Positions 96 through 1,434 of a stretch of 9,858 bases of DNA are shown piece after piece. Both the position numbers and the translations under genes were made by a program. Source of the stretch: a virus. Taxonomy: Duplodnaviria; Heunggongvirae; Uroviricota; Caudoviricetes. Below the pieces are notes generated by a model. It made no database searches, had not been told where the DNA came from, and worked only from the letters and a program-made list of their open reading frames with translations. The stretch lies in IMG/VR virus record IMGVR_UViG_2711768004_000003; one strand, written 5' to 3'. Each line of letters begins with the position of its first letter. The first letter of the stretch is position 1.

Positions 96-1343
96 TTAAC
101 TGATCGGCATTACACCACCGGGACGCGGATTCATATCTTCCAGGTCGCGGCAGTCATTGGAAGAGTAAATTCCCCAGTTGATCCCGGTGGCGTAGGCTTC
201 AAAACGGGACTTCATATCCCCGCGCAGTAACGCCCCGGCGTTAAATTTGGCGTAATAAACGCCCTGCTTACTTTTTCGTACCAGTCCGGTGTTGATCCGC
301 TGTTCGATGCGGGTCAGATACGGCACCAGTGAATAGTTGATAAATCCCAGCCCCAGCTCTTCGATATTGTTGAAGGTGGCGCGATCGGTGTTCTGCACCA
401 TGTGCAACGGCACCCGGAACAGACGACAGATTTCTTCCAGCTGAAACTTGCGGGTTTCCAGGAACTGACTGTCCTCGGCGTTCAGCGCCATCGACTTCCA
501 GTCCAGCCCCATTTCCAGAATCATCGGGCGGTGAGCATTGCCAAGCCCCGTGTGACACTCCTCAAAATCTTTCTTCAGACGCTCGTAAGCATCCGGCGTG
601 AGCTTTTGTTCCGTACGCAACACACCGGATGTCACCGCACCATTACTAAACAACCTGGCACCGTGCTCCTCGGTTGCCGCTGCCAGTGAAATGGCCTCAC
701 GCGCATACGCAATGGGATTCAGCCCGACAAGTCCATCCAGCGTCAGGGTGCGCACATGCCAGATTTCATTCTGGGTCAACACATCCACGGAACCATCCGG
801 AAACGTCACCTGATAAACCGGCTGCCACTGGCTGTTCAGCTTCGGTTCCACACAGCCCGGATCTATCGGAAGAAGCTCCACCACTTCTCCCAGTGCCTTT
901 ACCTTGTAGGCGTAAAAATTCCCCCGTAGACACAGGCAGACAATAACCAGCTCCCAGAATTCCTGCGGTGTCATGTAGCCATTAGGTTTTGCCGAAACCA
1001 ACTTATGCAGTCGTTCATCCACCGCCCGTGTTTTCAGGGTACCGCTGATTTTGTAGAGACTGCAGGGCAGCATACCAACAGACTCTGCCAGCACCCTGAC
1101 GCAAGAATAGACCGCCGTCAGGCGCATGGCCCGCTGGCTACTGATCCGCTTTCCGGTATAGGTGTCGTATGACAGCCCGATAGCATCAGCAGTTCTGCTG
1201 GCGTGGTCACCGGCACATCGCTTTTTCGTTGAAATAATCCCGAAAAGAACACTATTTACCTCCGCCGACAGACTGCCGTGTACGGTCGAGATATCGCGCC
1301 ACCAGCCACGACCAGAACAGGCACAGCGCCCCGGCAACAACAA
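96..1343 (-). CDS. Phage portal protein, HK97 family; true start unresolved, possibly frameshifted
   Basis: The 415-aa ORF carries portal-like motifs ([62 protein letters not shown]) and sits directly after the terminase large subunit. The ORF-track start at 1343 is TTG and overlaps the upstream small ORF. The only start with a good SD is a GTG at 1252-1250, which is in a different frame (see findings). Confidence 0.8.
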
Positions 1344-1434
1344 AACCCGCCGGGGGATAAATCAGCCAGGCACCATACGCCAGCAAAAGCGCACCCAGCA
1401 CGCCCACCAGAGGCGCGAGAATCAGCATGATCAT
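1252..1434 (-). CDS. Hypothetical small membrane protein (60 aa, two predicted hydrophobic helices)
   Basis: ATG at 1434-1432 preceded by GAGGT 4 nt upstream and 11 nt after the TerL stop. The product [60 protein letters not shown] is strongly hydrophobic with a basic C-terminus. Its TAG stop overlaps the GTG at 1252 (TAGTG). No homolog recognised. Confidence 0.45.

Follow-up and report, generated by a model that had tools for sequence, protein, structure and literature searches.

A YmfR-type membrane hairpin gene between the terminase and portal genes is conserved together with portal in HK97-like head modules

The DNA analyzed here is a stretch of 9,858 nucleotides (nt) from the Caudoviricetes virus record IMGVR_UViG_2711768004_000003 of IMG/VR, referred to below as the window. 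It carries on its minus strand a 60-codon open reading frame (ORF) between the gene for the terminase large subunit (TerL) and the portal gene. By sequence match, this ORF is a member of the YmfR family and an allele of an already named Escherichia coli gene, and by its pattern of substitutions it is a genuine gene under purifying selection. Small two-helix membrane proteins (hairpins) encoded at the same junction accompany the portal gene in many other phages, and we tentatively propose that YmfR may be a late inner-membrane partner of the portal protein. An earlier note on the window had described a two-helix membrane protein of 60 amino acids (aa) encoded between TerL and portal, with its own Shine-Dalgarno (SD) sequence and ATG. 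This description held up; the minus strand is a detail that the note had not given. The protein has a grand average of hydropathy (GRAVY) of 1.16 and two hydrophobic segments, and AlphaFold2, with an alignment of 23 sequences, predicts helices at residues 2 to 25 and 27 to 57 with a mean predicted local distance difference test (pLDDT) score of 73.5. A GAGG motif at 1443..1440 precedes the ATG at 1434..1432, and the frame closes with a TAG at 1254..1252. The parts of the gene and its signals, all on the minus strand, are as follows.

1252..1434, YmfR-type coding sequence of 60 aa plus TAG, assigned by the PHROG 502 match, the DNA identity with ymfR of K-12, the substitution ratios and the AlphaFold2 model
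1431..1363, transmembrane (TM) segment 1, residues 2 to 24, part of the YmfR-type coding sequence
1362..1345, conserved turn IYPPAG, residues 25 to 30, predicted to face outward, part of the same coding sequence
1344..1294, TM segment 2, residues 31 to 47, part of the same coding sequence
1293..1255, basic and variable tail, residues 48 to 60, predicted to be cytoplasmic, part of the same coding sequence
1440..1443, SD-like GAGG of ymfR, visible in the sequence itself, 2 nt past the TerL stop and 5 nt before the ATG
1259..1263, portal SD sequence GGAGG, inside codons 57 to 59 (Gly-Gly-Gly) of the small ORF
1250..1254, stop/start overlap TAGTG, in which the ymfR TAG (1254..1252) and the portal GTG (1252..1250) have one base in common

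The DNA of the ORF was 98.7% identical over 231 nt to ymfR of the cryptic E. coli K-12 prophage e14 (NC_000913.3, 1205523-1205753). In e14, ymfR (b1150) sits between ymfN, a chimeric replication/terminase protein gene derived from TerL, and beeE, a portal fragment. The e14 gene product is named "protein YmfR" by PGAP and "IPR020297 domain-containing protein YmfR" in RefSeq. The window protein matched PHROG 502, "membrane protein," over residues 1 to 55 (E = 2.8e-28). Among phages, the gene goes by sb3 in ST64B, and in phiP27, SfI, SfII and 118970_sal3 its product is called a "putative integral membrane protein." The window gene and that for e14 YmfR or Sb3 are essentially one gene, with the same position and a length of 60 aa; the window protein has R53 and Q54 in its tail, where two residues differ from the common allele. 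Scans of the ORF against Pfam and NCBIfam at E values up to 10 returned nothing beyond noise (TctB, DUF2244 and an ABC permease), and PADLOC gave no match to it. A search of PDB sequences with the YmfR family profile was also negative. PF06341 (DUF1056) matched neither the window protein nor seven other junction hairpins, including that of Lactobacillus phage A2, and Pfam scans of these seven found nothing. The proteins retrieved with a broad profile were named only "hypothetical," "prophage" or "putative membrane protein." In the literature on ymfR, sb3, b1150 and small membrane proteins between terminase and portal, we found gene lists, e14 deletions and a transcriptome table, and no functional study.

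Several GenBank records label YmfR homologues as "head-tail joining protein W," and we rejected this label as a positional misannotation. The gene for lambda gpW lies in the corresponding slot, flanked by the large terminase gene (A) and the portal gene (B), and the protein has a similar length. However, gpW is a soluble protein, whereas YmfR is a strongly hydrophobic membrane hairpin with two long helices in the AlphaFold2 model. The gpW family did not match the ORF in Pfam at E values up to 10, where there were only weak matches to unrelated membrane families. Two records with a Gram-positive attribution also carry the enterobacterial ymfR region with 96 to 97% identity, namely, a metagenome-assembled genome of a "Bacillota bacterium" (JAEWTL010000102.1, our locus L097) and the 1,764-bp record of "Enterococcus phage Efm 3-10" (OR845). 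These copies are likely the result of contamination or misbinning.

A single-sequence search with the ORF product found 167 matching protein clusters, almost all of exactly 60 aa, from Escherichia, Shigella, Salmonella, Citrobacter, Klebsiella, Enterobacter, Yersinia, Hafnia and Buttiauxella, with identities down to 58%. Members from the Enterobacterales had protein identities of 58 to 97%, and 17 columns were invariant in an alignment of 23 YmfR relatives. When a family profile was searched against 1.84 billion representative proteins, 420 clusters (at 50% identity) were found at an E value of ≤1e-3, nearly all of 45 to 80 aa. One contig match (L109) was discarded as a false positive within an ABC transporter. 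The earlier note had suggested checking the conservation of the frame and the balance of synonymous and nonsynonymous changes, and both checks came out in favor of a gene. The intact 60-codon frame was present in 79 of 80 viral contigs whose TerL is 99% identical, and it was kept across genera. According to the method of Nei and Gojobori, the pairwise ratio of nonsynonymous to synonymous substitution rates (dN/dS) over codons 1 to 48 was 0.07 to 0.30, at dS values of 0.5 to 1.7, in comparisons of the window with copies from Mangrovibacter, Scandinavium and Citrobacter. One Shigella copy (L105) was frameshifted, as expected of occasional decay. Among 87 near-identical alleles, codon 54 (1273-1275) took seven forms (CAG, TCG, ATG, CTG, ACG, CCG and CCA) coding for six amino acids; every other codon had at most four forms, and the variation in those codons was mostly synonymous. 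The variability of codon 54 reflects either a mutational hotspot or diversifying selection.

Among 43 diverse members, the glycines G14, G21 and G35 were invariant and a YGAW..PAG motif was conserved, with the turn having the consensus ..SYGAWLIYxPAGFIvaG... The motif YGAWLIYxPAGF and the three invariant glycines are common to the proteins from phages of Proteobacteria and Lactobacillus. The number of lysine and arginine residues per sequence was 1.23 in the N-terminal flank, 0.14 in the turn and 2.35 in the tail. Because basic residues lie in the flank and the tail, the positive-inside rule predicts that both ends of YmfR would be cytoplasmic and that the conserved aromatic/Pro-Ala-Gly turn would point toward the periplasm or the exterior. 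The tail is variable except for a terminal GG[EDK] in the Enterobacterales, which is conserved because the codons GGA GGT also spell the GGAGG of the portal gene. Tandem-duplicated versions with four helices and 100 to 120 aa were also found (P0156, P0177, P0183 and P0209). In the context of P0183 (L112, 1500-1808), protease and capsid genes lie downstream, and its neighbors have no Pfam match.

The ORF is embedded closely in its operon. Only 11 nt separate the TerL stop (TAA, 1448..1446) from the ymfR ATG, and at the other end there is the 1-nt overlap with the portal start, so that the intergenic gaps leave no room for signals. Relatives keep the junction between TerL and ymfR in the form ...TTTAAC(C)TGAGG.... 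A scan of 900..1900 on the ymfR strand found no promoter-like site, and no terminator-like site adjoined the ORF. The G+C content at third codon positions (GC3) was 0.667 for ymfR, compared with 0.648 for TerL and 0.659 for the terminase small subunit (TerS), and thus there was no compositional anomaly. Since it lacks a promoter, a terminator and a compositional anomaly, ymfR does not look like a moron. The gene is part of the late operon TerS-TerL-[YmfR]-portal-protease-capsid, in which the stop/start overlap couples its translation to that of portal.

The association with portal was examined in 80 mostly environmental viral contigs that were retrieved by the family motif and whose neighboring genes were called with hidden Markov models (HMMs) made from our own TerL and portal sets. 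The portal gene lay directly downstream of the hairpin gene in 78 of the 78 assessable loci, and TerL immediately preceded the hairpin gene in 64 of 75. Extra DNA was present between TerL and the hairpin gene in 11 loci, and in none between the hairpin gene and portal. The distant members P0158, P0225, P0216 and P0192 were each flanked by TerL and portal. The stop of the hairpin ORF overlapped the portal start in 58 of 59 nonredundant loci; the overlap was 1 nt in 53 of them (TGATG, TAATG or TAGTG) and 4 nt in the other 5, and the remaining locus had a gap. A strict SD sequence preceded the portal gene in only 25 of these 59 loci. Because the overlap is nearly universal and yet a strict SD sequence is so often missing, portal translation in many lineages is probably initiated by termination-reinitiation after the hairpin ORF. 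The portal frame of ST64B and other relatives opens at a GTG (or ATG) in the same place as in the window, and the portal N termini of relatives align from the Met or Val whose codon overlaps the small-ORF stop. These N termini displayed no visible difference between phages with and without a hairpin. Two RefSeq annotations depart from this start: the SfV portal is annotated from an upstream GTG, overlapping the SfV hairpin ORF, and the ST64B portal is annotated from an ATA codon.

Pairwise comparisons of the three proteins indicated with which neighbor the hairpin travels. Hairpin identity followed portal identity (rho = 0.59) more closely than TerL identity (rho = 0.42) over all pairs, which are not independent of each other. 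The informative case is therefore an exchange in SfV. SfV and ST64B are 88% identical in TerL, 26% in the small protein and 28% in portal, whereas SfV and the Ralstonia phage YO151, the closest to SfV in hairpin and portal, are 35% identical in TerL, 58% in the small protein and 56% in portal. By these identities, SfV has exchanged the hairpin and portal genes jointly and retained its TerL. The comparison shows that the YmfR-type gene is inherited with portal rather than with TerL. In Citrobacter sp. Awk 4 (L107), the hairpin and portal genes are intact, but of TerL the upstream 2.4 kb retains just a 3'-end remnant, with unrelated ORFs before it. The arrangement points to a rearranged prophage that kept hairpin and portal as a pair.

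To place the window in a wider context, 19 phages were sampled down a ranking of TerL similarity, and HK97 was fetched separately by its accession. The earlier note had taken TerL running directly into portal as the norm and a membrane protein at this place as an unexpected insertion. The first view is right for HK97, in which TerL runs straight into portal with no hairpin ORF, but it does not apply in general, and the second has to be given up: a small hairpin ORF occupied exactly the same TerL-portal junction in 12 of the 19 phages. These include the following.

PY54 (L086, 2295-2492), 65-aa hairpin, unannotated, a clear homologue
SfV (L002, 2762-2923), 53-aa hairpin, unannotated, with an ATGA overlap with the TerL stop
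Ralstonia phage YO151, hairpin present
Klebsiella phage Kp4873-4, hairpin present
Burkholderia phage phi644-2, hairpin annotated as gp3
Vibrio phage VaK (L085, 3707-3913), hairpin present, annotation truncated
PhiPS02, hairpin present
Lactobacillus phage A2 (L091, 2303-2494), 63-aa hairpin, unannotated, containing ...GYGAFLINRPTGFMVCGG...
Gordonia phage Zirinka, hairpin annotated as gp3
Geobacillus phage PT9.1, hairpin annotated as gp04
Enterococcus phage IME_EF3, hairpin annotated as gp06

No hairpin was found at this junction in Caulobacter phage TMCBR2, Staphylococcus phage 3A, Bacillus phage Gamma, Serratia phage BUCT805 or Paenibacillus phage Jacopo, and soluble inserts took its place in Moraxella phage Mcat23 and Streptococcus phage Javan65. 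The hairpins of A2, PY54, phi644-2 and the Alcaligenaceae are treated here as YmfR homologues. Those of SfV, YO151, Kp4873-4, VaK, Zirinka, PT9.1 and IME_EF3 fall into PHROGs 7105, 4810, 1142 and 8943, which are linked with each other and with PHROG 502 by HMM cross-matches, although matches between hydrophobic proteins call for caution. Like YmfR, they have 50 to 70 aa, two helices, the TerL-portal slot and an overlapping stop and start, but their identity to YmfR is only 20 to 40%. Unlike YmfR, the SfV-type hairpin lacks the YGAW..PAG motif, and its sequence alone matched the YmfR profile weakly (hhalign probability, 3.7%). The hairpins of SfV, VaK, Zirinka and IME_EF3 are probable distant relatives or analogues of YmfR.

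The neighboring genes in the window are given below, together with the lysis genes, which lie at 4185..5694, 3 kb upstream of ymfR.

1446..3179, minus strand, terminase large subunit of 577 aa, matching Pfam TerL_ATPase and TerL_nuclease, directly upstream of ymfR in the same operon
3679..3176, minus strand, Terminase_4 small subunit, upstream of TerL
4142..3792, minus strand, HNH endonuclease, upstream of the terminase genes
1118..1252, minus strand, portal N-terminal fragment of 44 codons, ended early by a 1-nt deletion between 1191 and 1190
102..1190, minus strand, remainder of the portal gene in a shifted frame, matching Pfam Phage_portal, its 3' end lost to IS4
4185..4661, Rz-like gene of the lysis cassette
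4646..5143, lysozyme of 165 aa with a hydrophobic N terminus like that of signal-arrest-release (SAR) proteins, lysis cassette
5143..5694, protein resembling pinholins at its C terminus, lysis cassette, in a region (5143-5731) mostly masked by a run of N

We take the lysis cassette (4185-5731) to resemble that of phage 21. The gene downstream of ymfR matches Pfam Phage_portal, but it is broken twice. A 1-nt deletion at 1191/1190 (GAACT-GCTG in the window, compared with GAGCTGGCGG in ST64B and every other close relative) shifts the portal frame after about 20 codons, and the frame initiated at the GTG stops at 1118. The deletion was found in 1 of 72 close loci, the only one being L004, which is identical to the window, and it is either a pseudogene mutation or a sequencing error. 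In addition, positions 1-101 of the window are the end of IS4 (insG), 100% identical to copies in 2,591 E. coli genomes. IS4 was inserted toward the 3' end of the portal gene, and homology to portal runs out at about position 102. The prophage is defective because of the portal frameshift and the IS4 insertion, whereas ymfR, TerL and TerS are intact. The earlier claim that the stop of the small ORF overlaps the best portal start was thus correct in that the TAG and the GTG share a base, but this GTG opens only a 44-codon fragment, because the deletion and IS4 break the portal gene.

How could a membrane hairpin be useful next to portal? By analogy, YmfR may be a late inner-membrane partner of the portal protein, serving as a tether or an assembly aid; we hold this preferred reading tentatively. 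The T4 portal initiator is membrane bound and dependent on the viral chaperone gp40 (PMC9958956), and gp40, a phage factor for portal assembly on the inner membrane, is proposed here as a functional analogue only. YmfR would be produced late, its rate following that of portal translation, and would work jointly with portal at the cytoplasmic membrane. It could tether portal subunits to the membrane or chaperone their assembly, concentrating them and nucleating the prohead, like gp40 for T4 gp20. Cotranslational insertion of the hairpin could also bring the ribosome that reinitiates at the portal gene, and hence nascent portal, near the membrane. We infer that YmfR is an accessory and not an essential factor because HK97 and other relatives lack the gene. 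A bolder extension is that the YmfR hairpin is a widespread, unrecognized head-assembly accessory that brings the ribosome and the polycistronic late mRNA to the inner membrane, where this ribosome would reinitiate at the overlapping start and portal would be made and oligomerized while bound to the hairpin. We consider this extension unlikely. If it were true, membrane-nucleated prohead initiation, of which T4 (gp20/gp40) is the one established case so far, would be common in HK97-like phages of Proteobacteria, Firmicutes and Actinobacteria.

Several points weigh against a partnership of YmfR with portal at the membrane. YmfR has no sequence relation to T4 gp40, and the position of its gene differs. 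No HK97-type prohead is known to assemble on a membrane. HK97, TMCBR2, 3A, Gamma, BUCT805 and Jacopo make proheads without a hairpin, and the hairpin is therefore no general requirement. The coupling and coinheritance with portal could reflect operon economy alone. The intactness of ymfR in defective prophages (e14 and the window) is equally compatible with a host-side role or a small mutational target. Finally, at the locus of the tandem-duplicated P0183 (L112), neither portal nor TerL was recognizable.

The protein might also act on the host side, as a superinfection-exclusion or host-takeover factor whose inner-membrane hairpin blocks incoming phage DNA or alters the host membrane, as in the cases of HK97 gp15, T4 Imm and lactococcal Sie. 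Small inner-membrane phage proteins often have such roles, and gp15 and Imm are small proteins of this kind, gp15 being encoded within a morphogenesis gene block. Beyond this analogy, an exclusion role would fit the intact ymfR where TerL or portal is broken (e14 and the window) and the hypervariable tail codon 54, if diversifying selection acts there. PHROG 502 is likewise placed in the category "moron, auxiliary metabolic gene and host takeover," a label apparently derived from the words "membrane protein" alone. However, gp15 and Imm form independent units that are expressed early or from the prophage, whereas ymfR has no promoter-like site on its strand in 900..1900 and no adjoining terminator-like site, matches its neighbors in composition, and is always directly upstream of portal with an overlap that is almost never missing. 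In transcriptome data that also display induction of the lexA (SOS) regulon (PMC10012262), the e14 gene was upregulated together with the other e14 genes (log2 4.5), with no stand-out expression in the lysogen. The negative PADLOC result, and the architecture shared among phages that infect Gram-negative and Gram-positive bacteria, whose entry routes differ greatly, also argue against exclusion, which we regard as somewhat unlikely. A role in lysis, in which the glycine-rich hairpin would oligomerize late in infection and tune the membrane potential or the timing of the holin in the manner of an antiholin or auxiliary holin, seems distinctly unlikely. Class II holins and pinholins such as S21 are small proteins with two glycine-rich TM helices, like YmfR in size and topology, and the invariant helix glycines as well as expression from the late operon would suit such a function. 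But ymfR lies outside the lysis cassette, which is already complete in the window; no holin family in Pfam or NCBIfam matched at E values up to 10; and the gene is tied to portal, not to endolysin, in every lineage examined.

Two further explanations do without a function of the protein. If the ORF were a cis-acting leader, its translation alone would count, delivering ribosomes to the portal start by termination-reinitiation and setting the portal dosage, and the peptide would be functionless. The frequent overlap combined with the scarcity of strict portal SD sequences would suit such a leader, and the embedded GGAGG accounts for the C-terminal GG[EDK]. Against this stand the low dN/dS over the TM core, the YGAWLIYxPAGF motif and glycines shared by phages of Proteobacteria and Lactobacillus, and the conserved length and topology of YmfR. 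Moreover, a leader is not needed for coupling, since hairpin-less relatives such as HK97 couple portal directly to TerL. We therefore judge a mere leader very unlikely. The earlier note had also raised a chance ORF in G+C-rich DNA or, as a refuting outcome, portal 5' coding sequence. An overlapping frame of 415 codons (96..1343) does run into the region, and the upstream SfV portal start in RefSeq could be read in the same sense. But the part of the overlapping frame upstream of the portal start is not conserved, the portals of relatives begin at the small-ORF stop, and the small frame is retained in close loci and across genera under purifying selection. The conservation of the frame and the purifying selection refute both possibilities, to which we assign virtually no probability. 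What probability remains goes to functions outside those considered here.

Under the names ymfR and PHROG 502, the gene itself is not new; a quarter of complete E. coli genomes carry it (DNA matches in 1,362 of 5,426), so the window brings no novelty in this respect. The hairpin has often been missed or mislabeled, either as "head-tail joining protein W" or by being absorbed into an overextended portal annotation, and its position offers a simple rule for annotation. Rather than a random insertion, the ymfR-type hairpin gene is conserved alongside portal, and with hardly an exception translationally coupled to it, in the HK97-like head modules of phages from different bacterial phyla. This raises the testable question of whether it provides a membrane anchor for portal or prohead assembly in many temperate phages.

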